From Giardia intestinalis (lineage: Eukaryota): a stretch of 64,000 nt of DNA. The DNA is taken from assembly GCA_000002435.2 (NCBI GenBank), contig CM018793.1. The stretch is one strand, 5' to 3'. This document shows, piece after piece, positions 27,161-55,700 of the stretch. The notes beneath the pieces were generated by a model. That model saw only the letters and a list, made by a program, of their open reading frames with translations. It searched no databases and had not been told where the DNA came from. Positions within the stretch are counted from its first letter, which is position 1; the number at the start of each line of letters is the position of its first letter. Both the position numbers and the translations under genes were made by a program.

Positions 27161-30100
27161 TCAATAATCTACAAAGTCGGCAAAGTCTCGCACGGAATAA
27201 TTAACAACTTTGATAACAAGCTCAGGGACCTTGTTGCATGCGTCGACCCAGGTAAGGGCTCTATCAATAAATCTGTCAAAGAGAACTCCCCAAACATCTC
27301 TTCTGGCCACTGTATCTATCTCTACTGGCTTGTTCATTGGTGCTATGTACTCCTCTTCGACTTGCGAGACCATGGAATCGTCTACATCCGATGTAGCCTC
27401 TTCCTCACCTTCTTTGACCCCTTCTTGGAACTTGGACGAGCCAGCCAAGCCCTCCACGGCAGCATCAAGGAGGTTCTTGCCCTCTTGCGGAACCAGCTCT
27501 GACTTTGTAGGGAGCTTTTGATCTTTTTGAGGCGCATTAGACTTTGTTGGACTCGTCTTGGATTTCATATCCTTTTCCGGTTTTGGTGGCAAAATGCCCA
27601 GATTTCCTGCAAGGAGCAGTGCATTTTCCTCTGTGATATCAACAACGTACGCACACTTGGTGGCTGACGGTTGAACAATGGCATCTGCAAAGATAGTTCC
27701 AAAAGGGCCACTCGGAGTCAATAGAGATAGATATACGGGGAGACGCATTGCCTTGCTGGCCCCACTAGACACACCTGCTGTGTCAATGTGTGTAGAGAGG
27801 TAGGAGTATAGAGACTCGAAGGAACTCAGAGTCCTAACACCTATGTTCTCTATGAAAGATATGAGTGAGACGTCTATGGTCGAACAGCCAGGGGTGTCCT
27901 TGGCTTGAATGGCAGCAAGGGCCTGCGCCTTCATGGATTCTGCATCTGTCAAGGAGCTCGGCTTAATGCAAAAGAGAGCACAGAGCTTTTCGAGCGTTTC
28001 CACTGGCACCTGGAAAGATTTGGACAATTGCGGAGGCTCCTGATAGAACTGCGCATCATTACGCCATTCACCATCCTCGCCGGAGTCACCATTATCAATG
28101 CCCTCTTTGCTTCCCACTGCAGCGACTTCAGGTGCAACCATCTCCTTATCGAAAGGCGTGTCTTCACGGTGCGCTAGTGTATCATTAGTATTGGGAACCT
28201 CAACACAATCACTGGGCGGTCTTTTTGGAAACGCGGACATTGGCCCAGATAGCTCGTCTTCCACCTCATCGCTCAGGTATGTATAGGATGTAACTCTGTG
28301 CACGTCCTGGTTGCTAGATGGACTTTCAAGTCTGTCTGGAAGCGCATATCTCGCTTCTATTGCCTTGACATCAGATTCGGTGTAACCGCATGCACTTATA
28401 ATGCCCCAAACAGCATCATCAAACTTTCTGTCATATTCTTGAGTGTCGTACTCTAAGGGTGCTTGGCTTCTATACACGCGTTTAGCAATCTGAACCAACT
28501 CTAGCATAGTAAGGATGAGGCCCTCTACAAGGTACTCAAGAGACGTCTTCTGGTAGCTCGAGCTGTACGTAAACCCAATGTATTTGCGGATTGTAAAGCA
28601 ATCAGCATCGTTTTTGAGTTCAGGCTTTTGAAATGTTGGATAGAGTGTGACGTCAGGCTTAGCAGGTACGGGGAGCTCAGACGGATGAATTGCAGCATCA
28701 GGGTCTATACCGGCCTCTTCCGCAGTCAGCTCACCGTTAGCAATGCCCACCAGCTTCTGGTAGGTCAGCTCATATTCGTCTAGCTCATCATCATACAGGC
28801 GTAGACGATCACAGTGCTCTGCTATTAGATCATCTGTATAATGAGTGAATAGTGCGTCTATGAATGTATCAAACTCCCTCTGGAAGCTTGCCAGCTTTAG
28901 CTCATAAATGAGTGAGCCTATGTCAAGTGGTTCATTAAACTCTGGATCATAGTCTACTCTTTTCTTAGTGAAGCGATCAACGCTGGTGACGTCTTCGCCC
29001 AGCCCTTTATAGAACGCCTTTGCAAGCTGATATTCCTTGATCTGCTGTGAAGTTAGGCTTTCTAGATACAAGTCTTCTGTCTGTTCTGTTAGTCCCAAAT
29101 ACGGTCTCGGTCCATCCTCCATAATAGAGACACTGAGTGTGAGGTTGCCCCGATTACGCGACCGCTTGGCAATTCCCGGTTTTGCTATAGTACTGGAAAA
29201 GTTAGAGTGATTCAGATGGTGACCAGGGCTGTTTGTAGCCATGAGTTTTCCTTCCAGGTCTTCGTCGAGCTCCTCATCGATTTTATCGACATTTCTGATC
29301 AACTTTTCAGTAGTAAAAGGAGTGCAGTCTTCAATCCCGTAAGCATACAGAGACAGGTTCATATAATTTGTCATTTCGGAAAATATATTAGTGAGATGAG
29401 GCACATCTGGTAATGCCGGACATGAGCTTTCCATGATGAGCCGCCCTAAGTGGAGTAGTAGATTTGGGTCAAGGAATACAACCTCAGAATTGAAGTTCTG
29501 AGCAAGATAAATAGACATGCTGGTTTTGAATGAGTCTACTAACTGAATTAAGCTCAGCGTGGTTGCATCAGATCCCTTAGACTTGGAGGAAGAAGAGGAG
29601 CCCGTGCCTCCCAGTGCAGGCGGTTGCTGAAGTGGAAGAGATAGCCCAATACTCTTTGCAAATAAGCATGAACATATCTCTACAACATACTTGCAAAGTT
29701 GCGCGCGCGCACGATTGACTACCGCGCACTGCTTGTTGAAGACTGTCTTGGCATGTCTAAACCCAACCACACTGATGTAGTGCACCATATTGTCGATGGT
29801 CTCTGTCTTTGGAAAAGAAGATAGCTGAATGGCCGCAAAGACAGCATCAAGGAGTGCATAATTAAGCTGCATAGGACGGAAGGGTTGAAACGTTGTAATG
29901 GCAAGGCACTCGAAAGCGTCTGAGAGTGCCGCTGTCTGTGTCTCGCTAAGCGTTGCTGGTGTAGTAGCTGATGTCAAACCAGTTAAAAAGCATGCATTAG
30001 CTTCAAAGAACGATCGGGAAAACAGGCGTGAAGCAAGGGTGTTGGGGTCTGCATCTGCAAAGAAGATGCCTAAAAATGTCTTGGGCAGGGGAATGGCAGT

Positions 30101-33100
30101 CATCGATAGCAGGGGCTCCTCTTTGCCTTTCGTCCCCTTTTTCACTGGCTCCTGGACAGGAGGAGTCTTCAGCCTCTCATACGATGCCTTTAGAATAGAA
30201 GAAAGGCCCGTTAAGCAGGCCAATCTGTCGGATTCCACCGCTAATGTTGGTACTCCTGTGAGGCATCTGATTCTAATTGGATGCGACTCGATAGATGACA
30301 CTGCCCTGGGCTTCTCCGAGCTAATCGGTGGCCGCTTTAATAGACCTGACTGGGCGTCAGGCACAGGGAGTGGTGTTACTTTATCCAGAATAAGATAGTC
30401 TGAAATTGTGTATGGTTCCTCTTGACTTATCAAGTATAAGTTAGGTGGTGCTTGATCAGTTAAAGAAGCGTTAGAGGCGCTTCGTTGCGGAGTCAATGCA
30501 GGAGATTGGTCACCCATTCTTTTTTTGCTGAAAACACGACCCTTCTTGTGTAGTGTTGCATTGGCATATGGATGGGGTGGTGTTGCTTGGTCACTGAAAA
30601 GAACAACCTCATAATGTGCATATAGCATATTACGGTGGCTTTGGGACACATTCTCGGGGCAAAACGGAGTGTACTGATGTTCAGGATAGTAGCTCCAGTC
30701 AATCTGTTCCGGAGGAAATGATGCGCCACGTGTGACGGCATGCGGATCTATCAGGTTAATTTCGTGGAGTGCATAAATGAAGGGTATGTACATCCGTCCA
30801 GACATGGTGAGCAGGTATAACATCTCTCGGAGCATTAACTCTGCAACATCATGGACTATGGTTTCTATGGCAGTGTCAATTTTATCTTGTGGAATCCCTT
30901 GCTCCTCTACCAAAATGGGTGCACTGGGCGATGATCCATCAGCTGCTTGCTCCGCCTGCTCCACTGCTGAGAGGGCACAGGCTAATGACGTCCCATCATA
31001 TGGCTCTTTGGTCCCTGGATCAGCGTAGTACACATGCTTAAGAAATAGATGCTTGAATGAACGAAGTCCCTCCTGGTTGCCTCTGATATCTTTAGCTGTG
31101 TCTGTTGCCACAATTGGCTTTTGGGCTCCGGGAGGTTTCTTAACCTTTTCTGCCTCTAAGCGTGCGTGTTCTTCCTCTGCAACAGTCTGACACGTCAACT
31201 TCAGGCGATAATAGAAGACTGAGATCATAAAGGAGTCTGTCTTGGGTGCGAACGGTGCATCCTCCTCGCTGTTATGGTTATATGTCTGTAGGCTACGTCT
31301 GCGGTGTGCAAACTCCTTACAGACACTTTCCCAGAAGCAGGGCACAAAGCTCCCGACTCCTTCAGCAGCTTTAAGCTCAAGCAAGTGCCGTAGCTTAACC
31401 AGGTACACCAAGGCACCTCGTTGCTCAGTGTCAAAGGAAGACAAGTGGCCACCAAAAACGGTATTCAAGGGCCGGATTGATGAGGTCGCAGAGGCCATAG
31501 AAATAAGTGTAGACAGATTTTCTGCCCAAGAGGGGCGTGCAGACGCACTTATTAAACCGTTGGACATCAGCGAAAGGCGTTGCTTCGTTGCTCCCTTTCC
31601 CCTATTCATCACTTTAACAATCTGCTGTTCTAGAAGCATCTGACAATAAAAACCAATTCTTTCATAAAGAAATCTGGCTAGTGACGTGGGAACCACTGGG
31701 GCGGTTAAAGCTAGAAGCTCCTTACTCCTTGCAATGCCACGGCAAAAGACATCGTACTCTATAGACTCCAAGCTGGAAAGCACGACTAAGTCAGGCTCTT
31801 TGTCGGAGAAAGCGTCGACTACGACATGCTCCTGAATGAGAGCAAGACTGGACTGACGATACTTATCCAGCTGTCCTGCCTGAGAAGGGGGACCCACAGG
31901 ATTCTTGGAAAAAGGTGCTGGAGAGTCAGTAGGCACCTGCTCATTGCCTAATGGTGGTCTCATGCTTCCATGCAGAGAGAGAGTTGGAGAAGAATCTGTT
32001 TGCCGTGGTGGTACATGGGGCATTAGAAAAGCTTTGAGTGCGACAGAGTTATAAGCAGCAAGCTTTAAGTAATGGGGGGAGTTCTTGTAGAATAGGAGCT
32101 GCTTTGCCGGAAGAATCTCGTGGGTAAATCTCTTAATATTGCATGCAAGTCCTTCATTTGCAGCTTTAAAGCGGGAGTCAACCTTCACAAGCGCAAATCT
32201 AGCGGTTGTAGGAATTTGCATTGGAGGCAGTGCAGCCGCTCGGAGAGTTGCGTTGACCCTATTCTCGGTGTGCTGTGTGCAACCAGAAGATCCCAGCCGA
32301 GCCGCATTTAGATACCCAAACGTGGACACAAGAGCATGGGGAAGAGAGGAGTTGATGGGAGACGCCTCAGGGTCAGCCGCCAAGTGATAAAGCCCGAATA
32401 TACGCCGCTGTTTGATGGGCGTCTGCATGGATCCATAAGCTTCTAACTCATCGGGGAAATAATCATCAGTGTACCCTGCAAGTAGCGATTGTACACTGAG
32501 ATCAAGCCCCTCGCATTCAATAACGAGGTCGCTCAGAAGCTGCTTTATGTCATTAGCAACCCCCGCCCATGACACGTTAAGAGTGCCTGTCTCGTGAATG
32601 TGCATAGCTTTAGTATTGATATTATATTTTGCTATGCCCCGCTCTTTGACTCGTTCTCTATTATCTAATTCAGTAACACGGGACACCTCCATGGCCAAGA
32701 AAACCAGTTCAGAAACTAGCTCTGCGCACATCTGCCGTAAATATAAATCGGACATCATTTTAACTCCACGCTTACTGAGGGACCTAATGGAGTTGCTGAT
32801 CTGTAAGAAGTCGGAAGATATGCCGTAGCATCGGATATTTATCCGAGTCGAAGTACCATCGGCTGCCGTTTCTATCAGTCTATTTGCATGCAGAGTATCT
32901 TCTAAACTAAGAAGGGATACCTCAACAGCAGGAGATGTAACTATCCAATATTCTCGAAGTATTATGCCAGGAGCTGCAACTCCTGTCTCAGAAAGTGGTA
33001 GGATAAAGCCTATAGATGTAGAGCACCCTGGGTTTAAGTTCCAAGTAGATGATGGAACGGAAACTATCAAGTTAGTTTCAGTACTCTTATTTTCTTTTAG

Positions 33101-34600
33101 AAACTGTGTTGCCAAGACACGTAGTTCAACAGGGGTTGTCGACTTTTGAATGAGCCTCTTTGCATCTATTCCCGCTTGTGATGGAGCTATATTTGCGGTG
33201 AGAGTCTCGCTCAGTGCATGCTTCCTGGTTTCTATATCCTCTACAGACCCCCTCTTGGATTGATTCCGCGAAGGTTCTGAAGAGCCCACAATATTGACTG
33301 TTGCTCCTAGTGACATGTGGCTTGTAGTAGAGATGTTGCTCTTGTAACGCTTGGGGTCCTGTGACACCAAATCCAGAAGCCTGTTGACGGAACTACTAGG
33401 AACCGCGCCTAAATTCTGCCGGAGTTTGTGAACGGGTGCATTACTGTTAACGCTCATGAGAGATCGAGTTGACTCTGGGCTGCGGGCCCTGTCGGTGAAG
33501 ACGTCCCGGCCTTCAAACATTGACATTTTAGAACTAAACTGAATGGGGTCCACAGTGGCCAGGTCTATCGCGCCTTTCGGAACTAGCTTCAATGAGACAA
33601 CGGAATCTCCCATATTACGCACTGTTACCGTGGCAACATTATATCCTACTTTTTCTCTGGAATTATAGATCACGGTGGTGAGGTTCGTTATCTCTATTCG
33701 CGGGTGAAGCTCTTGTAGTGCAAACGCGATTGGCTCCATGATGCAGGTCGTGTTTATTTTATCTGTGTTCAGGTTTAATTCGGGCATATAGGTAGTGACT
33801 ATGTGACTGTTTTTCTCTGTAATGTACTGGGCGATCTTGTCTGCCTTCTGTGCAGCTGTGCCGGCTGGCAAGCGTTGCCCACGCGCATTGAGAGTGCTAA
33901 GAATACCAGTAGTGTTTGTGCGGGCTGAATTGACCTGACAGTCTGTCGGGGTAGTGTTTGGAGAGATTGAGTCTGATAAGGATACAGGGGCTGCGGTGGC
34001 ATCGTGCTTGGTGATCCTACTTGACGATATGGTAACTGAGTGTTCGTTATTTGGTGAGTCTTGCAAGTGATTTGGGCCTGTTGGCGAATGCTTGTTCTGG
34101 GTCTTCTGGGCCAAGAGTGAAAATTCCGCATCTGGTAGGTCACAGGACGGCTGCATGGCTCTAGAAATAGCCCGCTGAGCAACCCGCGATCTATAATCTT
34201 CCAGCTCCTTGCGTAGATCGTCTGGAAGGTGATGAGCAAAGTCACGATACTTGGGCATGTTGATAATATTTTGGAGGCTTATCGCATTGGGGTCATTGGA
34301 AACTACACACTGCAAACCTGAGTATCTTCCGCCGACAGGAACAACCTGTGTAGTCTGAAGGGTGCGAAGGGATGACTCCCATGATAAATTTGCCCTCTGC
34401 CGTCGCTTTGCCTCATTGATAGCATCCAATCTTACCTTCTCTCGGTGCAAGGTAGAGATGTTCAAGATAGATTGAGTGTCCTTTCTAAGTATTGACGCTC
34501 GCTCCATATTGGCCTCCCAGGCTAGTGCATGTTTAGCGAGTAGCTCTTGCGCCTTTCGCTTGCGGGTAGCTGGCGAAGGGGCCCGGTATATATTTTGCAT
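27161..34600 (-). CDS. giant hypothetical protein (about 2480 aa)
   Basis: Continuous 7.4-kb ORF. The track start is GTG; first ATG is at 34598-34600. No obvious catalytic motif. One segment (YNVATVTVRNMGDSVVSLKLVPKGAIDLATVDPIQF) resembles an MSP/ASH-type beta-sandwich. Confidence 0.8.
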   Translation of the reverse strand: MQNIYRAPSPATRKRKAQELLAKHALAWEANMERASILRKDTQSILNISTLHREKVRLDAINEAKRRQRANLSWESSLRTLQTTQVVPVGGRYSGLQCVVSNDPNAISLQNIINMPKYRDFAHHLPDDLRKELEDYRSRVAQRAISRAMQPSCDLPDAEFSLLAQKTQNKHSPTGPNHLQDSPNNEHSVTISSSRITKHDATAAPVSLSDSISPNTTPTDCQVNSARTNTTGILSTLNARGQRLPAGTAAQKADKIAQYITEKNSHIVTTYMPELNLNTDKINTTCIMEPIAFALQELHPRIEITNLTTVIYNSREKVGYNVATVTVRNMGDSVVSLKLVPKGAIDLATVDPIQFSSKMSMFEGRDVFTDRARSPESTRSLMSVNSNAPVHKLRQNLGAVPSSSVNRLLDLVSQDPKRYKSNISTTSHMSLGATVNIVGSSEPSRNQSKRGSVEDIETRKHALSETLTANIAPSQAGIDAKRLIQKSTTPVELRVLATQFLKENKSTETNLIVSVPSSTWNLNPGCSTSIGFILPLSETGVAAPGIILREYWIVTSPAVEVSLLSLEDTLHANRLIETAADGTSTRINIRCYGISSDFLQISNSIRSLSKRGVKMMSDLYLRQMCAELVSELVFLAMEVSRVTELDNRERVKERGIAKYNINTKAMHIHETGTLNVSWAGVANDIKQLLSDLVIECEGLDLSVQSLLAGYTDDYFPDELEAYGSMQTPIKQRRIFGLYHLAADPEASPINSSLPHALVSTFGYLNAARLGSSGCTQHTENRVNATLRAAALPPMQIPTTARFALVKVDSRFKAANEGLACNIKRFTHEILPAKQLLFYKNSPHYLKLAAYNSVALKAFLMPHVPPRQTDSSPTLSLHGSMRPPLGNEQVPTDSPAPFSKNPVGPPSQAGQLDKYRQSSLALIQEHVVVDAFSDKEPDLVVLSSLESIEYDVFCRGIARSKELLALTAPVVPTSLARFLYERIGFYCQMLLEQQIVKVMNRGKGATKQRLSLMSNGLISASARPSWAENLSTLISMASATSSIRPLNTVFGGHLSSFDTEQRGALVYLVKLRHLLELKAAEGVGSFVPCFWESVCKEFAHRRRSLQTYNHNSEEDAPFAPKTDSFMISVFYYRLKLTCQTVAEEEHARLEAEKVKKPPGAQKPIVATDTAKDIRGNQEGLRSFKHLFLKHVYYADPGTKEPYDGTSLACALSAVEQAEQAADGSSPSAPILVEEQGIPQDKIDTAIETIVHDVAELMLREMLYLLTMSGRMYIPFIYALHEINLIDPHAVTRGASFPPEQIDWSYYPEHQYTPFCPENVSQSHRNMLYAHYEVVLFSDQATPPHPYANATLHKKGRVFSKKRMGDQSPALTPQRSASNASLTDQAPPNLYLISQEEPYTISDYLILDKVTPLPVPDAQSGLLKRPPISSEKPRAVSSIESHPIRIRCLTGVPTLAVESDRLACLTGLSSILKASYERLKTPPVQEPVKKGTKGKEEPLLSMTAIPLPKTFLGIFFADADPNTLASRLFSRSFFEANACFLTGLTSATTPATLSETQTAALSDAFECLAITTFQPFRPMQLNYALLDAVFAAIQLSSFPKTETIDNMVHYISVVGFRHAKTVFNKQCAVVNRARAQLCKYVVEICSCLFAKSIGLSLPLQQPPALGGTGSSSSSKSKGSDATTLSLIQLVDSFKTSMSIYLAQNFNSEVVFLDPNLLLHLGRLIMESSCPALPDVPHLTNIFSEMTNYMNLSLYAYGIEDCTPFTTEKLIRNVDKIDEELDEDLEGKLMATNSPGHHLNHSNFSSTIAKPGIAKRSRNRGNLTLSVSIMEDGPRPYLGLTEQTEDLYLESLTSQQIKEYQLAKAFYKGLGEDVTSVDRFTKKRVDYDPEFNEPLDIGSLIYELKLASFQREFDTFIDALFTHYTDDLIAEHCDRLRLYDDELDEYELTYQKLVGIANGELTAEEAGIDPDAAIHPSELPVPAKPDVTLYPTFQKPELKNDADCFTIRKYIGFTYSSSYQKTSLEYLVEGLILTMLELVQIAKRVYRSQAPLEYDTQEYDRKFDDAVWGIISACGYTESDVKAIEARYALPDRLESPSSNQDVHRVTSYTYLSDEVEDELSGPMSAFPKRPPSDCVEVPNTNDTLAHREDTPFDKEMVAPEVAAVGSKEGIDNGDSGEDGEWRNDAQFYQEPPQLSKSFQVPVETLEKLCALFCIKPSSLTDAESMKAQALAAIQAKDTPGCSTIDVSLISFIENIGVRTLSSFESLYSYLSTHIDTAGVSSGASKAMRLPVYLSLLTPSGPFGTIFADAIVQPSATKCAYVVDITEENALLLAGNLGILPPKPEKDMKSKTSPTKSNAPQKDQKLPTKSELVPQEGKNLLDAAVEGLAGSSKFQEGVKEGEEEATSDVDDSMVSQVEEEYIAPMNKPVEIDTVARRDVWGVLFDRFIDRALTWVDACNKVPELVIKVVNYSVRDFADFVDY

Positions 34601-34665
34601 CAACACGCAACGAAGCTCAACAGAGCTAGAGCCTTAATTTTTTAAATCGGGATTTGAAATTTTAT
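34601..34665. promoter_or_regulatory. 65-nt bidirectional promoter region between the 2480-aa gene (-) and the 344-aa gene (+)
   Basis: caacacgcaacgaagctcaacagagctagagccttaattttttaaatcgggatttgaaattttat. An AT-rich core (ttaattttttaaatc) is shared by the divergent starts. Confidence 0.4.
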
Positions 34666-40093: not shown

Positions 40094-41089
40094 ATGCCTC
40101 CTTGCATTTATGACGTACACACCCACACGTTTCTATGCCAATGTGCTGAAAAGGTAATGCCACGGGTGTACTTTAAACTGGCATCAGAGTTGGGATATAA
40201 AGGGATAGCGTACTGCTGCCACAACCCTTTCCCTGGAGACCTAGTAACTCCCCAGCACAGAATGGCTTATGAAGAGTTTGAGTTGTTCATGACAATGTAT
40301 CGACGAGAATGTGCATTTGCTCGGATTCACCTTCCAGAGTTGGACATTCTTCTTACGATGGAAGTTGACTACCTTCCCGATGCTCCACATCTCACTGAAG
40401 ATTTTATTGTGAGCCACCTTGGAGACTTCGACTGTGTCCTGGGGTCTCTGCACTATTACCAGGAAATTGAGAACGCGTGCTCAGACAAGGAAAAACAGAT
40501 TAAAGTGTACTTTGAAACCTGGGTACAGGCGCTCAGAACAGGATGGTTTCAAGTCATGGCGCACATGGATTTTATTAAGGTTGTTGTAGGCATGGAGTGG
40601 GTTCGCAGAAACAGGGAGGTGGTCCACAAGCATGCAGAAAGCGCCATCACTGAGATGGCGAAGTACAATCTGGCGCGAGAGAAGAAAGGCCTCGATCCGG
40701 TTGTGTTAGAGCTCAACACTAGTGGATCTCAGTATGGAGACGACTTTTTTCCAGCTGAGTCCCTTGTGGCTTATGCTGCCAAGATGAATATCCCTTTTTG
40801 CTTATCCAGTGACTGCCATCAGGCGTCAGAATTGGGTCGCAACTTCAAGGAAGCCCTTTGCTGCCTGAAGAAACATGGTGTCACAGAACTTTGTTACTTT
40901 AAAGAGCGACGGCTTCAGAGATATCTGCTCGAGGATGCCATTGCCACGTTCAAACCGTCCTGTGTGCCTGAGTTGGTCTCGAGAATCAAAGCCCTGAAAG
41001 GATATGATGTCTCTGTCAGCGAAGAGCTAGAGGAGATGAAGTGGAGCAGTCTGCTTGCACGCAGGTCTAATGAGAAGAGTAAAAGTTAG
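40094..41089 (+). CDS. PHP-domain phosphoesterase, histidinol-phosphatase (HIS2/HisJ)-like
   Basis: N-terminal YDVHTHTFLC (PHP D-x-H-x-H metal motif); later LELNTSGSQYGDDF and SSDCHQASELG parallel yeast HIS2 IEINTSALRK / SDDAHGVAQVG. The track start is TTG; ATG is at 40094. Confidence 0.75.
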   Translation: MPPCIYDVHTHTFLCQCAEKVMPRVYFKLASELGYKGIAYCCHNPFPGDLVTPQHRMAYEEFELFMTMYRRECAFARIHLPELDILLTMEVDYLPDAPHLTEDFIVSHLGDFDCVLGSLHYYQEIENACSDKEKQIKVYFETWVQALRTGWFQVMAHMDFIKVVVGMEWVRRNREVVHKHAESAITEMAKYNLAREKKGLDPVVLELNTSGSQYGDDFFPAESLVAYAAKMNIPFCLSSDCHQASELGRNFKEALCCLKKHGVTELCYFKERRLQRYLLEDAIATFKPSCVPELVSRIKALKGYDVSVSEELEEMKWSSLLARRSNEKSKS

Positions 41090-41096
41090 CCTAAAA

Positions 41097-41888
41097 ATGC
41101 AGGACATACTCACGAACGTGCTCACAAGCGAAGATATCGAGGCGGAGATGCGGCGTCTTCAGAGCGAGCTGGCAGAAGACACCAAGGAACTGATCCGCAT
41201 TCGAACGGAGTATCATCAGGCAGAGCAATGCCTGCAGAATTGGCAGGGCCGATTCGCTCTTGCTGAGGGGTTTCAATCTCACAGCCTAGCCCCAGAAAGA
41301 GACCACCGCTTCTTTATGGCTCCTATCGGATCGGTGGTCACGGATGACGCAGACCCGTCTCTGATTAATGTGACACTGCTCGACAGCTTCAAAGGCTCAT
41401 GTGCCAACTTGGAGTCCTGGGACAAGGCTTGGGTCATTGGTCTTGCTAAGCATAGATTCTCATCTAACCATTTCCCTGCGTCCGATTTACTAGCTCCTAG
41501 TTCAGACATTGTTTCCGGTCCTGTCGGGACTATCACTGTGTCAAACGTTGTGTTTAACTACACAGAGCCGTATAACAACTCTGTACATATATCAAAGTAC
41601 CTCATAGACAACGCAAGGACTGCAGGGTGCAGTGCTGTCACGGAAGATCAGGACCCTTTTACTCTCGGTGTCTCTCCTCAGCTTCCGTGCTATTTGGAGG
41701 CAGCTGGCGAACAAGCCATTCAGTATGAGCTTGTCAACCTTCTTGCAGACATTGTGGCTGTTGACCAGGAGACCGTTAGGCTGACCACCAGTGAGCCTCT
41801 TCCACCCGAATTTGTCCTTCTCGATCTCAAGGTCTATCACCCTTACATTGAGGGCCTTACTAACCTTCTAGAACACGAAAAGCAATAG
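41097..41888 (+). CDS. hypothetical protein (263 aa)
   Basis: The ORF track begins at a TTG (41055) overlapping the upstream gene. The first non-overlapping ATG is at 41097, 7 nt after the PHP gene stop and preceded by cctaaaa. Confidence 0.55.
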   Translation: MQDILTNVLTSEDIEAEMRRLQSELAEDTKELIRIRTEYHQAEQCLQNWQGRFALAEGFQSHSLAPERDHRFFMAPIGSVVTDDADPSLINVTLLDSFKGSCANLESWDKAWVIGLAKHRFSSNHFPASDLLAPSSDIVSGPVGTITVSNVVFNYTEPYNNSVHISKYLIDNARTAGCSAVTEDQDPFTLGVSPQLPCYLEAAGEQAIQYELVNLLADIVAVDQETVRLTTSEPLPPEFVLLDLKVYHPYIEGLTNLLEHEKQ

Positions 41889-43486: not shown

Positions 43487-44851
43487 TTAGTAGGCGTCGT
43501 CCTCCTCCATGTCCTCGCCCTCGCCGTCGCCAAGGGTCTCGGCGCCGATCTCCTCGTAGTCCTTCTCGAGGGCGGCGAGGTCCTCGCGGGCCTCGGAGAA
43601 CTCGCCCTCCTCCATGCCCTCACCGACGTACCAGTGCACGAAGGCGCGCTTGGCGTACATCAGGTCGAACTTGTGGTCCATGCGGGACCAAACCTCGGCG
43701 ATGGCCGTCGTGTTGGAGATCATGAGGCAGGAGCGCTGGACCTTCGCAAGGTCGCCGCCGGGGATGACGGTCGGGGGCTGGTAGTTGATGCCGACCTTGA
43801 AGCCTGTCGGGCACCAGTCGACGAACTGGATCGTGCGCTTCGTCTTGATGACCGCGATGGCCGCGTTGACGTCCTTCGGGACGACGTCGCCGCGGTACAT
43901 CATGCAGCACGCCATGTACTTGCCGTGGCGGGGGTCGCACTTGACCATCATGTTCGCCGGCTCGAAGACGGAGTTGGTGAGCTCGGCGACGGAGAGCTTC
44001 TCGTGGTACGCCTTCTCGGACGAGATGATGGGCGCGTACGAGCAGAGCGGGAAGTGGATGCGCGGGTACGGGACGAGGTTCGTCTGGAACTCCGTCAGGT
44101 CGACGTTGAGGGCGCCGTCGAAGCGGAGCGAGGCTGTGATCGAGGAGATGCACTGGGCAATCAGGCGGTTGAGGTTCGTGTATGTCGGGCGCTCGATGTC
44201 GAGGTTGCGGCGGCAGATGTCGTACATGGCCTCGTTGTCGACCATGAAGGCGCAGTCGGAGTGCTCAAGCATCGAGTGCGCGGCGAGGATCGTGTTGTAC
44301 GGCTCGACGACGGCCGTCGCGATCTGGGGCGAGGGGTAGACGACGAACTCGAGCTTGGACTTGCGGCCGTAGTCGACGCTCAGGCGCTCGAGGAAGAGGG
44401 ACCCGAAGCCGGCGCCCGTGCCTCCTCCGAAGGAGTGGAAGATCAGGAAGCCCTGGAGCCCGGAGCAGTTGTCTGCGAGCTTGCGGACGCGGTCGAGGAC
44501 GAGGTCGACGATCTCCTTGCCGATCGTGTAGTGCCCGCGGGCGTAGTTGTTGGCGGCGTCCTCCTTGCCGGAGATCAGTTGCTCGGGGTGGTAGAGCTGG
44601 CGGTACGAGCCCGCGCGGACCTCGTCGACGACCGTGGGCTCGAGGTCAACGAAGACCGCGCGCGGGACGTGCTTGCCGGCGCCCGTCTCCGAGAAGAACG
44701 TGTTGAACGCGTCGTCGCCGCCCCCGATCGTCTTGTCGGACGGCATCTGGCCGTCGTGCTGGATCCCGTGCTCGAGGCAGTAGAGTTCCCAGCAGGCGTT
44801 GCCGATCTGGACTCCGGCCTGGCCGATGTGGACCGAGATGCACTCACGCAT
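43487..44851 (-). CDS. alpha-tubulin
   Basis: 454-aa product [31 protein letters not shown]...[11 protein letters not shown]...[40 protein letters not shown]...EEDDAY is canonical alpha-tubulin. Third codon positions are GC-saturated. Confidence 0.97.
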
Positions 44852-44896
44852 TTTTATTTCCGCCCGTCCAGACTCTGGAATTTGCTGATTTGAATT
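44852..44896 (-). promoter_or_regulatory. alpha-tubulin upstream region (45 nt between upstream gene stop and tubulin ATG)
   Basis: Coding-strand reads ...gaattcaaatcagcaaattccagagtctggacgggcggaaataaaa ATG. The A-rich initiator is flush with the ATG, and the whole promoter must fit in 45 nt or extend into the upstream ORF. Confidence 0.45.
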
Positions 44897-47800
44897 CTAA
44901 ATTGTTTTCTGCTCCAGAAGAAGCTCGACGCTCTCTGGAGAAAAGTTGACGAGAGAGGCCTCGGTCGGGGTGTAGTAGATTCTAACACCATGCCTGCTGC
45001 TCCCTGCCTTACTAGGAACAAATCCGATAAACTGGAATACGAGCAAAACTAATTCCACAGGGGTCATATTGTGTAGAGTGATGTATGAGCCAGCGCATCG
45101 AGCCAGCACCTTCTCAAAGATCAAAAACCATCCCGGAGTTACATCTTCTCCAATTCCAAGAAAGGCTGGTTTCGCGACCTCATTGGTTCTCATTACAGGG
45201 ACCTTGTCTGATACGAGCACGTACCCCTGGGGTGACCTAAACGACAAGATAGTCTCTCTGCCCATTAGCTTGAATTGCTCTGTAGCATGCAGGGCGTCAC
45301 AGATCTCAAATAGTGCCCGTAAAAGCTTGGCATTGGCACTATGTTTAGCTGCAAGATCCTCCACGTCCACAGACGGTTTCATAGGATCAGGCATGCCATC
45401 CAGTCGCGAAGCAGGGGTGTTAATGATAATGTTCTTGTGGATAACTGGGCCTAATGGCCGAGCGGACTTCTTGGCCTCACCCTGTTTGCCCTTGCGTGTT
45501 CCATCCTGTTGCTGGATCGGAGGACACGCACTAAGGAGCTTCTCAGCGCTCAGGGGTTGTTCATACGATACCATGTGAAGCGAAGAAAGAGAAACCATGC
45601 ACGCAGATACGAGGTCCTTTTGGACTCCTTCGTCAAAGGCCCGTATTTCCAATTCCAAACCAACCTCTTTGGATGGCTTCCCATCGGCAGCTAAGCATGC
45701 GCATAGGAGAGAGTATGCTGGGAGAGGATCCATCCAGTAATAGATACCATCATAAGGGATGTCAATAAGGCAATCCAGCTGACAAAGAGGGGTTTGCTCA
45801 GGCCCCTGTTTCTTGGTTGTTGAGAACGTCTTTGACCCGCTCTTAAGAGATGCCAGCTCACCGCGTTCTGTCTGATCCTTCATTGTTTGGTCATTTTCTT
45901 TTGCTTTTAGTAAGTGTAGCTCCTCTCCTTTAGAAATCAATAGTTTGCGAGTCAGCTGGTTGAGGTACGAAGCCTTGAGACGAGGTATGCTCAGCTCTTT
46001 CTGCGGAGACAAAGAAGCAAAGATATGCACACCATCACTGTATAGCCAACACCCGTTTCCCTCGTCTTCTCGATAGCCATCAGCTAATAAGGTCAAGACG
46101 CCTGTGGAAACAGGATGCCCTGGAAGACTCTCATGCCCAGCGAAATCAGCATACAGATCCGATGACGGATCCAGCCTTATGTCCGACTGCTGCGAAGAAT
46201 ACTGCTCAACATGTCCAATGTCAAAGCAGGAACGCAGGTCTTGCGCCTGCTGTAGAATAAGAGCATTATTGCCCCGCGTGCTGGGACGAGGCGGTGCAAC
46301 AGCCAAATTCTCTGTCTCTGGAAGGTCAATGTCGTCGTAAAGCTCAAGGAAATCAAGCCGTTGGTGTACCTTTGTAGAGCCATGCGACTTTGCTCGGCTA
46401 GGAGTGAAGCGGCCGCTATTTAAGCGCACATTTTCCACATTTTCCTGAGACAAGCCAACAAAGGGAGCGCCCTGTGGGGACAGCTGAGTAGGATCCCTTT
46501 GCTTTGTAGCAGGAGCATCACCGAGGGTAGTAAGGTTAAGGGTCGATGTTTTGGCAGAATCAGAGGGGCAGAGACTAGTTTTTATGCTTGAAACCGTCTG
46601 CCCATTGTGCTGCTTGCTCGTATCTGTTACACACGACACGCCAGAAAGCGTAGTATGCATGTTGGAATTATCGACGATTGGGGCTGAAAACAGTGCGGCG
46701 GCCAAGTCAAGCTCAGCAGGCCGAACAGCTTTCAGCGTGACGTACTCACAAAGAGATAGGTGGACGCATAATAAGCATCTCTGCAAGACGGCCTCAAGAA
46801 AAGAAATGGATGTTTGGCGTTCCTTCATGGACGCGTTCTGTTCTTGGGATAGCTTGGACGTGAAGCCGGTGGTAAGTGCCACTTGAAAGGCATCGCCCAG
46901 TGTGTGGGTCATCGAAAGAAATTGCAGAGGCACAACAACTTCGCCGAGAGAAATGTAATTGGGAAAAGGAACAGGTCGAAAGACAAGACACTGGGTGGTA
47001 CCAATCTGCACGGTGGCCAGATAGCAAACTTCTGCCGGTCTGGCGAACGACCCGTTGCTAGTTGTGCTCACAGCATTCGGTAAAGTGTTCCTTACAACTG
47101 GAATTAGATCTAATGAGGTGGAAACGTGTCTCGTTCCAAAGGTGAGCCACCGTGGGTCAACAAGAGTTGCCAAGCACTGCTTCATAGAAGCGTTCTCCAA
47201 CGACCCTTCTCTTGGGGGAGGAGGTTCTGAAGCGGAAGACGGAGGAAGCCCATCTGGTCGTTTTCCCGAGGTAGTCCTGGGTAACTTAGACGCGCCTTCA
47301 ACTTCACCATGTAAAGCTTGCTTTTCCTTAGGCACTTTCATAGTTGAATTTTCTACCACGGCTTGGTTGTCAGCACTAGTCGCTGTGGTGGTTATGATGG
47401 ATTTTGTGGTTAATAGAAGCCCTGGTTTCTTAAGCTCTGATATCTCTTGCAGAAGCGATGCAAGTCGATTGACCCCGGGTGAGCCGCACTCAAACCTCTC
47501 ATCAACTATTATTTGGCCAGTGCTGTCTTGCAAGAGCTCAAGGGTCAACTCGAAGGACAGAGGCATTGCTCTGAATGCTTCTACTAAGGTACTCACGTTA
47601 TTCTGCTCGTTCTGCTCACCTATCTTGGGCTGGCGTTGACTGCTCACAGCTGTTAACAGTTGAGCCTTTATAATCCAGACTGTCGATGAAACGGGTGGAA
47701 AGTCTAACACCTTCATTGCTTTCTGTGCATCATTGTCACTGAATCGTGTCAAATTGAAATATGCCATGCCAGAGTGGTCTTTGTTAGATAGTGGCGCAAA

Positions 47801-50440
47801 TGGATGTGGACGTCTCAGAGCAATCAAGTATTGCTTGTCAAAATTGGCAACTTGAGGAAGCCGTATCCCACTATGAACATGAAACGCGGTTGCTCGGGAG
47901 ACAAACGCCAACGAAACACAGCAGTATCGAGACTTGCACGGGATCTCACCACTGAGAGATACCACATAGCCTAAGGCAGCGTAGCCCAGCTGAGGAATCA
48001 TTTCGTAGACAACAATTTTAGTGTCCGTCTCTAGATCTTCTGAAGACCAAACAGGAACGAGTGCATCCGGCTCAGAAAAGATGTATGAATCGAAACCGGA
48101 CGACTTTGAAATCAGTCCGAGCTCTAATGGGAGCACTGGCGGTATTGATTCCGCCTTGCTTGCCTGTGAAGTAATGGCTTGCGGTTCGGGTTCTTGCACG
48201 TGCTGCACATTCTTCGCTGATCCAGCACGTGGATTGCTGCTTGTCTTTGTAGTTGGCTGTTGGGGCGTAGGAGGTTTCAATGGCTGGGCGGTGGTCACTG
48301 CCTGCTTATCCCAATAGATTATGGATCCAAAGCAAGAGTAAGAGGGCTTTTTGAGGCTGGGTTCTAAAAATTGAAGCTTGTGTGTTGGAAGATCTAGAGT
48401 AGCTATTTTGACATACTCTTGTTCAATTGTAACTCCTGACATAAAATCTTTGGAGGATATCGAGGTAGCAGAGAAAATAAAGTTGAGGATAGCAGGTGAT
48501 ATGATGGGATATTTCGGAGAAGCGGATTTATCGGGCTCTAGCTCGTCGACCTTAGGGTCATTCACAAATATGAAAGGCGACCCTCGGGGAGTCACCAGTT
48601 GAACTGCTCGTGCCGTTGGTCGCACAAGCTGATCTAAATCCGCGACTTCAGACAAGTCAGAAAGAGCTGCTGATCGACTTTCCAATCTACTATCACCCGT
48701 GACACAGCTTCTTACGGCATCCTGACGTTCTGTACAAGCCGTCCCAGTTCTTGTTGTTGTTGTTGTTGTTGTTGTTGTTGCTGTCGTAGATGGCTCGTTG
48801 CCAAACGCCATCTGTGTATTGCTGCGTAGCGGAGACTCGGGTACGTTATGCAACGCTGTAGCCTCTACTCTTAAACCGAGCTGAGAAGAATAGGAGGGCG
48901 GAGGCAACGGAACATCTGTTAGTATCGGTCGTGTGAACCTATCCGCTGTAGTAACATCAGTCCTATTATCAGCAAAGCATAAGGTTGCTGCTTTTCTGCG
49001 CTCTTCAAGCATTTTGCTCTGGGTCTTAAGAAAACGGTAACAATATTCAGCTGAGTCTCTATCGTAAAGCTCTCCGATGATAGAGCAAGCATCTGTGTAT
49101 GTTATGTACTTGTTGTTCACCGTCAATACGCTGGCTGGATTTGGAGGCTCCCCCATCTCATCTCCAAGGACAACAGACACGGCAGTGTACCCAGCCGGTG
49201 CAACTGGCGCATACAGATATGTGTATGTCACTTGCTGAGGCTCCCTTGCTGCCCTGTGTGCCGCAGCCCTGGCATCATCCAGAGTGGTGCTTTCCGATGC
49301 ATATGAGATGGATGACTCACGATCATTAAGAGCTCCTTTGCTGCTATTCTTCTCTGGAGGAGCAAAGCTACTGGGCATAACGGCTACCAAGTTAAATCCT
49401 ATGCAAGGCACAAAGATCTCGTGAACGAGCTCAGGAGTGATGATAGAAGCGCTTGCATCAGCGTGGTTGGAATCACTCTCTTGGGAGAGCATTGCCAAGA
49501 CAGAGTCGTGTGGGACCACGGAGTTTTTAGTGCCTACACTATCGCCAAAGCGTGGGCCTCGTGCGGGCTTCACCAAGTACACTGTTGTTAGGTCATCATC
49601 TATCTCTGGAAGGTCATCAATGAAGCGGCTTGTAAGGCCAGATTTGGAAAAGCGGCTCATATTCATACCACCGGCCATACTAGCCGAGGAAAGGCGGATG
49701 GATCGGGACGAACCTATCTTAGGAGTTGCGATAGAGCGAGTGGACTTGGAATCAGTGTCACTTATGACTTTGTACAACGTAAGCCTAAGTAGGACATGCC
49801 TATCTACCGCAGGGTCCACCCGGCGGCTCTTTGGTCTCGGAATGTAGTCAAATAGTCGCGAAATCACTGGGATGTCTCTTACAACAGCCTGTCTTTGGAG
49901 CGAAAGGAGGAACATAGGATGAAGAACTGGAAGATAGTTGTTCACGCTGAAGCTGAAGTAATGAGAGCGAATTAGGCTGAAATTTGGAGTTATCGGAGAG
50001 CGAAGTATAAGATACGAGAAGGAGTTGATGTCATCTTCTTGTGGTTGAGCCGCAAACTCAGACCGTATGCAGTAAAAGTTGTCTGGGGGGTGCTCGGTAA
50101 TTGAGACGCAAAGTCCGAGCGCTGTGAAGCCGGAAGGCGGCACAGGAAGCCATATGCGCAGGAAAGAATTCGTCACGGTTCCCAATAAACGTGCTTCAAA
50201 GAGAAGACGAAATGATAACGGCTTAGTGTACATAGTTCCATAAGTTTGGCTGATAGGGTTTATTATCAGTATTTGAGTACCAATTGTATCGCTAGGATCG
50301 ACTCGAAGAAGGTCATAGAAGTAGCCAGAACCACGCGGAAGAACCGGTCTATTGAAGCACAAAATCTGATCCGAAAGAGACCCTTCAATTCTTCCTATCT
50401 CAGTAGATATGTTAGTCAATGTAAAAGACGCAGTGTACAT
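44897..50440 (-). CDS. giant hypothetical protein (1847 aa) with poly-Thr tract
   Basis: Continuous 5.5-kb ORF from ATG (cat at 50438-50440); its stop lies 45 nt upstream of the tubulin ATG. Contains T9 encoded by (ACA)n and Ser/Pro-rich linkers. Confidence 0.8.
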   Translation of the reverse strand: MYTASFTLTNISTEIGRIEGSLSDQILCFNRPVLPRGSGYFYDLLRVDPSDTIGTQILIINPISQTYGTMYTKPLSFRLLFEARLLGTVTNSFLRIWLPVPPSGFTALGLCVSITEHPPDNFYCIRSEFAAQPQEDDINSFSYLILRSPITPNFSLIRSHYFSFSVNNYLPVLHPMFLLSLQRQAVVRDIPVISRLFDYIPRPKSRRVDPAVDRHVLLRLTLYKVISDTDSKSTRSIATPKIGSSRSIRLSSASMAGGMNMSRFSKSGLTSRFIDDLPEIDDDLTTVYLVKPARGPRFGDSVGTKNSVVPHDSVLAMLSQESDSNHADASASIITPELVHEIFVPCIGFNLVAVMPSSFAPPEKNSSKGALNDRESSISYASESTTLDDARAAAHRAAREPQQVTYTYLYAPVAPAGYTAVSVVLGDEMGEPPNPASVLTVNNKYITYTDACSIIGELYDRDSAEYCYRFLKTQSKMLEERRKAATLCFADNRTDVTTADRFTRPILTDVPLPPPSYSSQLGLRVEATALHNVPESPLRSNTQMAFGNEPSTTATTTTTTTTTRTGTACTERQDAVRSCVTGDSRLESRSAALSDLSEVADLDQLVRPTARAVQLVTPRGSPFIFVNDPKVDELEPDKSASPKYPIISPAILNFIFSATSISSKDFMSGVTIEQEYVKIATLDLPTHKLQFLEPSLKKPSYSCFGSIIYWDKQAVTTAQPLKPPTPQQPTTKTSSNPRAGSAKNVQHVQEPEPQAITSQASKAESIPPVLPLELGLISKSSGFDSYIFSEPDALVPVWSSEDLETDTKIVVYEMIPQLGYAALGYVVSLSGEIPCKSRYCCVSLAFVSRATAFHVHSGIRLPQVANFDKQYLIALRRPHPFAPLSNKDHSGMAYFNLTRFSDNDAQKAMKVLDFPPVSSTVWIIKAQLLTAVSSQRQPKIGEQNEQNNVSTLVEAFRAMPLSFELTLELLQDSTGQIIVDERFECGSPGVNRLASLLQEISELKKPGLLLTTKSIITTTATSADNQAVVENSTMKVPKEKQALHGEVEGASKLPRTTSGKRPDGLPPSSASEPPPPREGSLENASMKQCLATLVDPRWLTFGTRHVSTSLDLIPVVRNTLPNAVSTTSNGSFARPAEVCYLATVQIGTTQCLVFRPVPFPNYISLGEVVVPLQFLSMTHTLGDAFQVALTTGFTSKLSQEQNASMKERQTSISFLEAVLQRCLLCVHLSLCEYVTLKAVRPAELDLAAALFSAPIVDNSNMHTTLSGVSCVTDTSKQHNGQTVSSIKTSLCPSDSAKTSTLNLTTLGDAPATKQRDPTQLSPQGAPFVGLSQENVENVRLNSGRFTPSRAKSHGSTKVHQRLDFLELYDDIDLPETENLAVAPPRPSTRGNNALILQQAQDLRSCFDIGHVEQYSSQQSDIRLDPSSDLYADFAGHESLPGHPVSTGVLTLLADGYREDEGNGCWLYSDGVHIFASLSPQKELSIPRLKASYLNQLTRKLLISKGEELHLLKAKENDQTMKDQTERGELASLKSGSKTFSTTKKQGPEQTPLCQLDCLIDIPYDGIYYWMDPLPAYSLLCACLAADGKPSKEVGLELEIRAFDEGVQKDLVSACMVSLSSLHMVSYEQPLSAEKLLSACPPIQQQDGTRKGKQGEAKKSARPLGPVIHKNIIINTPASRLDGMPDPMKPSVDVEDLAAKHSANAKLLRALFEICDALHATEQFKLMGRETILSFRSPQGYVLVSDKVPVMRTNEVAKPAFLGIGEDVTPGWFLIFEKVLARCAGSYITLHNMTPVELVLLVFQFIGFVPSKAGSSRHGVRIYYTPTEASLVNFSPESVELLLEQKTI
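48751..48780 (-). repeat. (TTG)10 microsatellite = (ACA)n coding poly-Thr
   Basis: Perfect ttgttgttg x10 on the plus strand, read as ACA (Thr) in the 1847-aa minus-strand ORF (TTATTTTTTTTTRT). Confidence 0.9.
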
Positions 50441-52788: not shown

Positions 52789-55700
52789 CTATGCAAGAAA
52801 GCTTGCCAGTTTCTCATTAACCTCTTTCCATACAGTGTGCTCAACGACCCTGAGATATGACATCTGGTATCCCATGCAATAACGACGTGCATGATAGTCA
52901 TGCTTCAGCTCGGGTCTCGAAATAGATAGTGGCGTTATCTGACGCACTACACGCTCCATATCAATGGATACCAAGAGGCCTCTCATAGGTTCAGTGAATC
53001 CGCCCCTGATCCATCGATGGAGCTCTTCTGGGTCAGGTGGCTGAGATGATGATTCAGGAAGCCTTGCTTTTACGTTGCACACGTCACCTATTGTTACCGA
53101 CGGCAGAGGAAATGCCCCCTGCATATTCGTCGCTATCATCTTGGTAGGGTCATAGTCTCCATGGCCAATATGAAGCTCTAAATCATTGGCGCACAGCGTT
53201 AGCCAGGCGTGCCCGTGATCTTCTAGACACATGCTGTCACGAAACTCCGCCAGTACGTCTACCGATTGGACGAAGAAGCCTGCCAGGACGGCAATCATCG
53301 CTCGTCGCATAGCCTTGGAAAGGTTTATGCTCCGTCCATGCAGAGAAATCGTGTAAATCAAGCGGACCCCATATACGTCCGCTGACGTCGCTGCACAAGT
53401 GGCAAATAGAGTCCGAAAGATTCTAAGGCGACTCGCGGGACTATGCCAAAGGAGGGTAAGACAAAATGTTACATATGTTCCCACTGCGTCTACCAGGTCG
53501 GTCGTGTGAATATGAGATAACACCGCAAACAACTGTTCTCCGTGATCATGTATCACACTGAGTCCTGATGAGTCACCAAGCACGTAGTTGTAGTATTCCA
53601 TCAACATACCTAAAATACTTACAGTTATATCGGGGGAATAGCCCCTAGAAATGTCTTCATCTATATATGGGGTGACGCGTTCCAACAAGCGTATTATCGA
53701 CTGTTCCATTGCAAGGGCTGCCTGGGTGTCAACCCCTATCCCAAAGGATAAATTCGCATTACTGAGTAACAGCTTGAGCAGCTTGGAAAAATCAACAGAG
53801 CGAAGAAGTACTAAGATTTCTGCGGGGGCCTTGGCAAGATGAGATAAGGCCTGCAGACATTTTGAAATGAAAATTAAGCTGTTGTGGTCCAGCGACCGGG
53901 CATTCCGAGACACAGATAGAATGGACGCCACTTCAGCGCAAAATGCCTTAATAGCGATACTGGGATTGCTCACTGCAATTGTATCTTCAGGACCTCCCGC
54001 GCACGCAGCAAGATACGCATCCAGATACACCCCGCCGATATATGCCTTGTTATTAATTGCACGCTGAAGAGTCGGGATAGAGAGGTAACTTACTGCAGGA
54101 GGACTCTTCACCAGTTCAGAGCCGCTACCTTGGAAGGATGACAGGAAGGAGCTGCAAAGACTGATCAACTCATTGGTACAGTGTGCTGACCAATAAAATT
54201 CTGGTGACGAGATCTCGGTCGTCAACAAAATCTTAGAGAATGATACGTGATCATGCTCAGCGAGAGACAGGACAAGGGGAGGTGGTAAAAGACCCATCAA
54301 CACCGGATTCTGTGCACGTAGAAGAAACCCACATATCTCTATGGTCAGAAGAAGCACGGGTGGGACACCCTTTGCATCTTGATCAGTCATGCGTGATGCA
54401 TTCTGAAGCAAAAATCTTAGTAAATGCACATGAATTGCACTCGAGGCCGCTGCATCGGGATTAATGAAAAGCACCATCTTGAGGATCAGTGCGCACAGGA
54501 CCGGTCTGGGATAAAGCTCGCTGGCCCACGGTACTTGAAGAAGATTTTGCTTAACGGTGTTTAGAGTTGCGGGGTCATGAATACTGAAGGAGTCAAGCAT
54601 GGATAGCCCTCCACCACTCTCGCTATAATGGCGCATGTATGCAAAGGTAGCTGAATCAGTAATGCTTTCATCAAGAGCTCCCTTGAGTATAGCTGGAAGA
54701 TAGGGCGCTATGACAGGGAGAAAAATCGTAGGGTCCTCAATACTGAGGACGTGGATAAGGAAGGCAAGGACAAGCTCGCTAAGCAAAAGCTGCTCTTGGC
54801 TCTCAATAATCGTGAATCCTATATAGCAAAGCATCTTCAGAAGAGACGTGCGTGTGGGTTCTTGGATCTGCGTATACAAATGGGAGTCTGTGTAAGCCAC
54901 ATAGAAGACCGTAGATAACATAGCATGGAGAGGGATGAGACTTCCAACATATTGGTAAAACGCTGTAATTAGATTGAAGTCTCTGGAACTAGAAGCACAA
55001 GCATAGATCGCTTCTAAGGTGTGCAGCATATCACAGACATATTGAGACGCGCTAAGTGTTTCAGAAGACCCTTTGCTCAAAAAGCTAAGGGTCTGGAGAG
55101 GAGTGCCTATGTTAACCTGACCCTTTGATAGATTGAGCTCGACCATCATTCCGAGTATGTTGTTAATATGATATCCAGAGATCAACAGACGCGCGGGATA
55201 CTTCGCTAACTCTGTGAATTCTCTTTCTGCGATGTCGAGCATCTCCTCCAAAGTACAAACGCAGTGTGTCTTATCTTGCTGGGACTGATAGCCACGCAGC
55301 AAGTGACCGAAATACAGAATAACTCGGTCTCTATAGTCGGCATCAAAGGCGAATCGGGGACCGTAGTAGCTACCTTTCATAATTGTCAGGAGCCTCGGGG
55401 CTTCAATTCCCCCGGTTGCTACGGAGTCGACATACGATGTGCCGAATATGCGGATGAAACGCCGAATATTGTCAGAGAATACACTACTGATTCCACAGGT
55501 GAGTCCAAGAAGCTGCGAGAGGACATCTGCAAACTCAGTGACAGAAAGGATGGTCCCGGTGAAAATATAGATCATGATTTGCGGGGCCAGTGCGACATCA
55601 ACGTGCGTCCTGATAGCTTCTAAGTAGTAGTGAATGACAGACACCACAATCAGTGTCCTCAGGTAGGACTGATTGCTGGCGTTCGTGATGAGAGAATCCA

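Follow-up and report, generated by a model that had tools for sequence, protein, structure and literature searches.

What is an enzyme that looks made for histidine synthesis doing in a eukaryote that is not expected to make histidine, and where did it come from? The locus that raises this question lies at positions 40094–41089 of a 64,000-nucleotide stretch of Giardia intestinalis DNA (contig CM018793.1, GenBank assembly GCA_000002435.2; the whole of this stretch is called the window below) and encodes a protein of the PHP family. A preliminary description, made from the letters of the window, had taken the product for a histidinol phosphatase resembling fungal HIS2 and bacterial HisJ, and had proposed either a horizontally acquired phosphoesterase with a new substrate or an overlooked salvage or phosphometabolite function. 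The comparisons assembled here lead us to favor, at a probability of roughly 0.6, a functional trinuclear-metal PHP phosphoesterase of bacterial PRK07328 descent with a role most likely outside histidine synthesis.

The open reading frame (ORF) runs unbroken on the plus strand from an ATG at 40094 to a TAG at 41087–41089, encodes 331 amino acids and begins with the N-terminus MPPCIYDVHTHTFLC, as had been described. An exact-sequence look-up found the product to be XP_001706848.1 (KAE8305631.1, UniRef A8BII9) of G. intestinalis WB, an entry named "putative Histidinol-phosphatase [Giardia intestinalis]", so that both the gene identity first proposed and the guess of a diplomonad source are correct. 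Because the RefSeq and UniProt entry already bears a histidinol-phosphatase name, the identification itself adds nothing new.

Family Assignment and Fold

The protein matches the Pfam PHP domain (PF02811) over residues 7–191 at 35 bits, against a gathering score of 26.4, and the PHP_C model narrowly below threshold (20.6 vs. 21.3). The leading NCBIfam matches are all histidinol-phosphatase models, with PRK07328 at the top (117.6 bits, E = 6e-34; cut-off 202), then TIGR01856 hisJ_fam (71.5 bits, below its cut-off of 90.2) and PRK08123 HisJ (55.9 bits, below its cut-off of 133). The top sequence match in the PDB is the Thermus thermophilus histidinol phosphatase 2yxo (E = 3.5e-18, residues 6–277), and a family profile finds the same entry at E = 1e-81, ahead of Listeria HisK (8e-37) and Lactococcus lactis HPP (4e-35) and, among other PHP proteins, of YcdX (5e-17) and PolX (about 2e-4). 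The AlphaFold2 model (mean predicted local distance difference test, pLDDT, 93.2; predicted template modeling score, pTM, 0.90) has the distorted (beta/alpha)7-barrel of the PHP fold, and a Foldseek search with this model again returned 2yxo first (E = 1e-19; template modeling score 0.85, target-normalized), followed by Listeria HisK and L. lactis HPP.

The closest solved structures and sequences are those of histidinol-phosphate phosphatases (HolPases), not of other PHP subfamilies, and the sequence comparisons place the Giardia protein with the T. thermophilus, or PRK07328, type and not with the Bacillus subtilis HisJ or HIS2 types. L. lactis HPP (4gc3/4gk8/4gyf), Listeria HisK (3dcp/6nlr) and B. 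subtilis HisJ (TIGR01856/PRK08123) are 17–22% identical to it. A barrel and His/Asp/Glu metal motifs are also common to the C-terminal PHP domain of PolX, YcdX, the CpsB/YwqE tyrosine phosphatases and RNase AM/TrpH; a PHP domain of the PolX, TrpH or CpsB type was considered and rejected. Pfam, NCBIfam, PDB, structural and alignment evidence thus bear out the assignment to the histidinol-phosphatase branch of the PHP family with metal-binding motifs intact: the two outcomes named beforehand as speaking against it, grouping with PolX- or TrpH-type domains and failure of the metal-ligand motifs to align, did not occur.

The Metal Center

Nine columns are invariant in an alignment of 44 sequences (H9, H11, H43, E90, H120, H157, N208, D240, and H242 in Giardia numbering), and eight of these are PHP metal ligands, filling eight of the nine ligand positions of a trinuclear center. 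Such conservation over 44 sequences is far beyond chance. Their counterparts in L. lactis are, in the same order, H9, H11, H42, E81, H109, H154, D228, and H230; motif I aligns with H9/H11/D17 of L. lactis and H5/H7/H13 of T. thermophilus, the last residue of each triplet (D17 and H13, respectively) marking the ninth ligand position, residue 17 in Giardia. All metal ligands of the monofunctional HolPase of T. thermophilus HB8 (2yxo/2yz5/2z4g; PRK07328) align with the Giardia protein, and the two have in common the motifs L-C-x-H-A, R-M, G-S-(V/L)-H, H-x-D-x-x-K, E-x-N-T, and S-D-x-H.

If the solved homologous HolPases are a guide, the alpha metal would be held by H9, H11, E90, and D240, the beta metal by E90, H120, and H157, and the gamma metal by residue 17 (Cys in assemblage A, His elsewhere), H43, and H242. 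The nucleophile attacking the phosphorus of a phosphomonoester would be a hydroxide that bridges the alpha and beta metals, with the gamma metal stabilizing the leaving alkoxide and with K162, R56, and probably the clade-specific R249 binding the phosphate.

Remodeled Loops around a Conserved Center

Measured against the T. thermophilus HolPase, the Giardia protein has a beta4-alpha4 loop that is nine residues shorter and without W-P-L-D, Q213-Y214 in place of R196-R197 and F65 in place of Y59, and it adds R249, a helical insertion of 14 residues and, at the C-terminus, about 49 further residues; its PRK07328 score of 117.6 bits stands against the cut-off of 202, and it comes from an organism with no known histidine pathway. 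In L. lactis HPP, Y157 and R197 align with Giardia F160 and S210, and R160 falls beside K162; we take these three L. lactis residues to be substrate-binding, their numbers having been checked against the PDB alignment.

Several of these differences recur across the 20 fornicate sequences. The stretch from H120 to Y139 is 19–25 residues long in 19 of them (30 in P0005, one of the read-set sequences described below), against a bacterial median of 29, and is without the W-x-[LFIMV]-D motif found in T. thermophilus and 36 of 129 bacterial relatives; residues 121–130 are modeled with a pLDDT of 71, the lowest in the barrel. The helical stretch of about 14 residues inserted between strands 5 and 6 is specific to diplomonads, where the span from H157 to E206 measures 49–52 residues (bacterial median 36). 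Position 214, which together with 213 corresponds to R196-R197 of T. thermophilus, is basic (K/R/H) in 104 of 131 bacterial sequences (79%); all 13 sequences of the diplomonad core have Q213, and 12 of them have Y214. R249 occurs in 16 of 20 fornicates against 33 of 131 bacteria, F replaces Y65 in 19 of 19 fornicates, and at position 160 fornicates have F/Y where bacteria have L/V/I. At or near the active-site loops, fornicates further have N or T for G88, C for A241, and C for D/E42, this last within a CCHNPF motif at a site that in bacteria is mostly (T/S)-(D/E)-H. The C-terminal extension is predicted to be helical, with a first part that is partly conserved in fornicates and confidence falling toward the end.

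All seven fornicate proteins scanned fall under the PRK07328 cut-off (106–121 bits in diplomonads, 130–151 in Dysnectes, Chilomastix, and Kipferlia), and all four bacterial relatives scanned pass it (236–309 bits). Taken together, the remodeled active-site loops and sub-threshold family scores lean toward a changed substrate.

A Probable Role outside Histidine Synthesis

The premise that this lineage is not expected to make histidine finds support in published metabolic reconstructions: the amino acids credited to Monocercomonoides synthesis are limited to Ala, Ser, Cys, Sec, Glu, and Gln, a list without histidine, and the reconstructed amino-acid network of Giardia is described as more reduced still (PMC6759080). 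Our literature searches returned no report of a histidine pathway, his genes or histidinol dehydrogenase in Giardia, and nothing on this particular protein when Giardia or diplomonads were combined with histidinol, the accessions were used, or PHP was combined with lateral gene transfer. The Trichomonas "histidinol" matches concern an aminotransferase and are irrelevant.

Because the presumed pocket loops have been rebuilt and no histidine pathway is known in Giardia, the enzyme most likely no longer serves histidine synthesis, and we consider it somewhat better than an even bet that its physiological substrate in vivo is not histidinol phosphate. We hypothesize that an ancestor of Fornicata took the gene from bacteria, that the lineages sampled kept it and then diverged, that the substrate-pocket loops were rebuilt, most strongly in diplomonads, and that the enzyme probably dephosphorylates another small phosphomonoester. 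The fornicate proteins might then form a new functional subfamily, a captured bacterial HolPase re-tooled to hydrolyze a different phosphomonoester and marked by Q213/Y214, R249, CCHNPF, the extra helices and the Cys gamma-site ligand of assemblage A; we hold this more specific proposal tentatively, at slightly less than even odds.

A number of observations pull the other way. The semi-conserved acidic residue of the beta4-alpha4 loop is kept (Giardia E124, E126), as are R56 and, in 20 of 20 fornicates, K or R at position 162, and because these residues are retained the Giardia enzyme may still be able to bind histidinol phosphate. Many short-loop bacterial relatives without the W-x-D motif pass the PRK07328 cut-off, so loop length alone cannot sort HolPases from other enzymes. 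The clade-specific changes are provisionally assigned to the substrate pocket by their position after the barrel strands and by background on substrate binding in L. lactis HPP, and the absence of other his genes from Giardia rests on the literature. On the evolutionary side, distances are saturated in the neighbor-joining (NJ) trees of 151 and 157 sequences (200 bootstraps each), and NJ does not settle on a bacterial sister group for the fornicates, for which reason the trees point to no particular donor and, strictly, do not fix the direction of transfer.

The alternative that best survives these considerations is that the protein is a genuine L-histidinol-phosphate phosphatase, working in a cryptic, partial or salvage histidine route in fornicates or maintained because HolPase activity itself is under selection. 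Its closest characterized relatives are all HolPases, as are its best family models, the full catalytic center is kept together with K/R162, R56 and the acidic loop residue, and the basal fornicates are more bacterial-like, both in the PRK07328 scores given above and in that several keep K/R at 213/214. However, the amino-acid metabolism of Giardia is described as minimal (PMC6759080), the literature searches yielded neither a histidine pathway nor a histidinol dehydrogenase for it, every fornicate scanned lies under the PRK07328 cut-off, the basic residue at position 214 that most bacterial relatives carry has been replaced in diplomonads, and uptake of a phosphorylated intermediate from outside the cell would itself be improbable. 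We therefore judge true HolPase function to be unlikely, if well short of negligible.

The called genes around the bacterial relative P0014 (L009/L010) contain no his-pathway Pfam domain, which is uninformative about function; PHP-type HolPase genes mostly lie outside his operons (PMC9798254), and the P0014 context agrees with this. For the wider family, the wording attached to the HisJ-family model offers a lead and not a test. The description of TIGR01856 reportedly cautions that not every member need act as HisJ, and is said to cite Clostridium perfringens, which has several members and is nevertheless predicted to be without histidine synthesis.

Purifying Selection and a Ligand Replacement in Assemblage A

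The gene is clearly kept by purifying selection. Between assemblages A and E, the ratio of nonsynonymous to synonymous rates (dN/dS) is 0.14–0.15 by the Nei–Gojobori method, and between A and B the proportions of nonsynonymous and synonymous differences are pN = 0.126 and pS = 0.77, the latter saturated. It is this low dN/dS, together with ligand invariance across the fornicate clade, that indicates maintenance by selection.

Among the fornicates that cover it, the ninth ligand position departs from His in a single lineage. In the two assemblage-A coding sequences (CDSs) that were compared, codon 17 reads TGT (Cys); assemblages B and E have CAC (His) there. All three codon positions thus differ, and passage from His to Cys needs two nonsynonymous steps, by way of Tyr or Arg. 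Cys is found in every assemblage-A protein that includes the N-terminus; His is found in Giardia muris and all other fornicates covering the position, and in 104 of 131 non-fornicate sequences, none of which has Cys. Cys17 is hence exclusive to assemblage A among 151 family members. Because Cys binds metals, we read the gamma site of assemblage A as altered rather than lost.

The same replacement could be taken as a failing gamma site in a decaying relic or non-catalytic pseudo-enzyme, given that Cys17 is unique among the 151 members, that all three codon positions had to change, and that the PRK07328 score lies under the curated cut-off. Such decay is very improbable in view of a dN/dS of about 0.14, eight ligands that are invariant across Fornicata, an ORF that is intact in many independent assemblies, and the fact that Cys is itself a good Zn/Fe ligand, one ligand having been swapped for another.

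Distribution and Probable Bacterial Origin

Searched exhaustively with phmmer, 1.84 billion representatives yielded only 933 proteins at E ≤ 0.001. The best named matches are all fornicates (G. muris, Spironucleus salmonicida, Hexamita inflata, Dysnectes brevis, Chilomastix cuspidata, and Kipferlia bialata), and the best 150 of the 933 include no other eukaryote. A search with a fornicate profile for more eukaryotic members matched fornicates and bacteria only, with full-length fornicate proteins at 277 bits or more and the top bacterium at 196 bits; its named bacterial matches belong to Chloroflexota, Trueperaceae, and Verrucomicrobiota. Every sampled fornicate lineage has retained the gene.

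In the NJ trees, the 20 fornicate tips form one clade, with support from 185 and 188 of 200 bootstraps, nested in PRK07328-type bacterial sequences. From this nesting we infer the direction of transfer, and the gene is best explained as one old acquisition of a bacterial PRK07328-type sequence before the fornicate radiation, not as a recent transfer. Of the horizontal acquisition envisaged in the preliminary description, the bacterial affinity stands, the nearest non-fornicate relatives being bacterial; the event is not a novelty of Giardia or of diplomonads, since the non-diplomonad genera Kipferlia, Dysnectes, and Chilomastix carry the gene.

The likeness to HIS2 did not survive comparison, and the fornicate gene is best explained as independent of the fungal one. 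Saccharomyces cerevisiae HIS2 (YFR025C) is, like the Giardia protein, a eukaryotic PHP protein named histidinol-phosphatase, and the two have the N-T-S and S-D-x-H motifs in common; HIS2 operates within a complete histidine pathway, however, and belongs to a distinct clade with good support, which joins the HisK type of Listeria. Descent of both from an ancestral eukaryotic HIS2-type gene would account for the presence of PHP-type HolPases in fungi as well as fornicates, both eukaryotes, with no bacterial acquisition. Yet yeast HIS2 (P0259, 99% identical to the query with which it was retrieved) matches the Giardia protein at only 21 bits and 18% identity (E = 0.03, BLASTP). The trees concur: fungi and fornicates are sisters in 0 of 200 NJ bootstraps, fungal HIS2 is placed with Listeria HisK in 92 of 200, and the mean distance from fornicates is larger to fungi (2.88) than to T. 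thermophilus-type bacteria (2.03). With the T. thermophilus-type model also scoring far above the HisJ models, we regard vertical descent as extremely improbable.

Two features of the wider family deserve record. The gene is present in Hexamita inflata as two or more divergent paralogue groups (P0045 vs. P0051/P0191/P0192). One of them falls, together with P0053, outside the diplomonad core and retains both C-D-H, in place of C-C-H, and basic residues following the N-T motif. Public read sets yielded further orthologues (44% and 61% identity), one on the 79.6-kb Logan contig L008 (SRR31929897; gene at 6001–6981) and one on a 3.7-kb SRA contig (P0005). Both contigs are gene-dense and eukaryote-like, with TRM10, DUF676, TPR, and thioredoxin-type genes, and their sources are probably unsequenced Giardia-like or other diplomonad species.

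Gene Features and Chromosomal Neighborhood

The features on which the foregoing rests are located in table 1, together with two putative expression signals. The AT-rich element upstream of the start is similar to the short AT-rich initiator usual for Giardia genes, and AGTAAA fits the Giardia polyadenylation-signal consensus AGTRAA. An in-frame TTG lies at 40091, one codon 5' of the ATG.

Table 1. Positions in the window of the PHP gene, its motifs and its putative signals.
Feature	Position	Strand	Basis and remarks
AT-rich element TTTTAAAA	40082..40089	+	Read from sequence; 5–12 nt 5' of ATG; putative
PHP-family histidinol-phosphatase-like CDS	40094..41089	+	331 aa and TAG stop; ORF, family matches, exact-sequence look-up
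PHP motif I, D7-x-H9-x-H11 ... C15-x-C17	40112..40144	+	Alignment; H9, H11 predicted alpha-metal ligands
Codon 17, TGT (Cys)	40142..40144	+	Coding-sequence and protein comparison; gamma-metal ligand position
Fornicate-specific motif C41-C42-H43-N44-P45-F46	40214..40231	+	Alignment; H43 predicted metal ligand
E90 and D92, end of beta-strand 3	40361..40369	+	Alignment; E90 predicted to bridge alpha and beta metals
H120 and beta4-alpha4 loop to Y139	40451..40510	+	Alignment, model; H120 predicted beta-metal ligand
H157, D159, F160, K162	40562..40579	+	Alignment; H157 predicted beta-metal ligand
Diplomonad-specific helical insertion, strands 5–6, about residues 175–198	40616..40687	+	Alignment, model
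E206-L-N208-T209-S-G-S-Q213-Y214 ... P220 loop	40709..40753	+	Alignment
D240, C241, H242, then loop with R249	40811..40840	+	Alignment; D240 predicted alpha-metal ligand, H242 predicted gamma-metal ligand
C-terminal extension, about 49 residues (283–331)	40940..41086	+	Alignment, model; bacterial homologues without it
AGTAAA	41078..41083	+	Read from sequence; just 5' of stop codon; putative

The neighbors of the gene are those of an ordinary eukaryotic locus in kind: genes for eIF2alpha, a DUF1681/NECAP protein, a proteasome beta subunit, and tubulin. The surrounding GC content is 0.485, like the rest of the window, and many independent assemblies, as well as assemblage B, show the same arrangement. 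Bacterial in type as the gene is, contamination or an assembly artefact is excluded by these eukaryotic neighbors on contigs from many independent samples, by their recurrence in assemblages A and B, by a local GC typical of the window, and by orthologues that track fornicate relationships.

The order eIF2alpha, 500-aa protein, PHP gene is common to assemblages A and B but not kept in G. muris, where, on the G. muris-type contig L007 (PHP gene at 5001–5987), the upstream gene encodes a protein of 924 aa that matches Vps62 faintly. Synteny was considered as a sign of gene age and given little weight, since the arrangement is not conserved in G. muris. Downstream of the PHP gene lies a 272-aa gene without a Pfam match (41070–41888, plus strand), which as called from its ATG overlaps the final 20 nt of the PHP CDS; with the in-frame ATG at 41097 as its start, there would be no overlap. 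The tubulin gene (43487–44893, minus strand, 454 aa) lies in a GC-rich stretch (0.55, against about 0.48 elsewhere), and the 419-aa plus-strand ORF antisense to it, also without a Pfam match, is probably a by-product of composition. Four very long ORFs of 1847–2918 aa (14930–22033, 27161–34606, 44897–50440, and 52789–61545) are found in the window, which is tightly packed and has no obvious introns.

Significance

The Giardia PHP gene is an orphan pathway enzyme, a single gene of biosynthetic type under purifying selection across a eukaryotic lineage without a known remaining pathway. The assemblage-A-specific replacement of a His ligand by Cys amounts to a natural experiment in the metal-site chemistry of PHP enzymes. 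Should the substrate have changed, the name "histidinol-phosphatase" in Giardia, Spironucleus, Hexamita, and Kipferlia would be a propagated mis-annotation, which we think likely, and an unrecognized metabolic step would be hidden behind it. Because the enzyme is of bacterial type, and because the sequence and structure searches we ran returned no human or other animal protein, it could be of some drug-target interest. If the fornicate proteins do form a new functional subfamily, Giardia would possess an enzyme without a human homologue that carries out a metabolic step so far unrecognized in this parasite.

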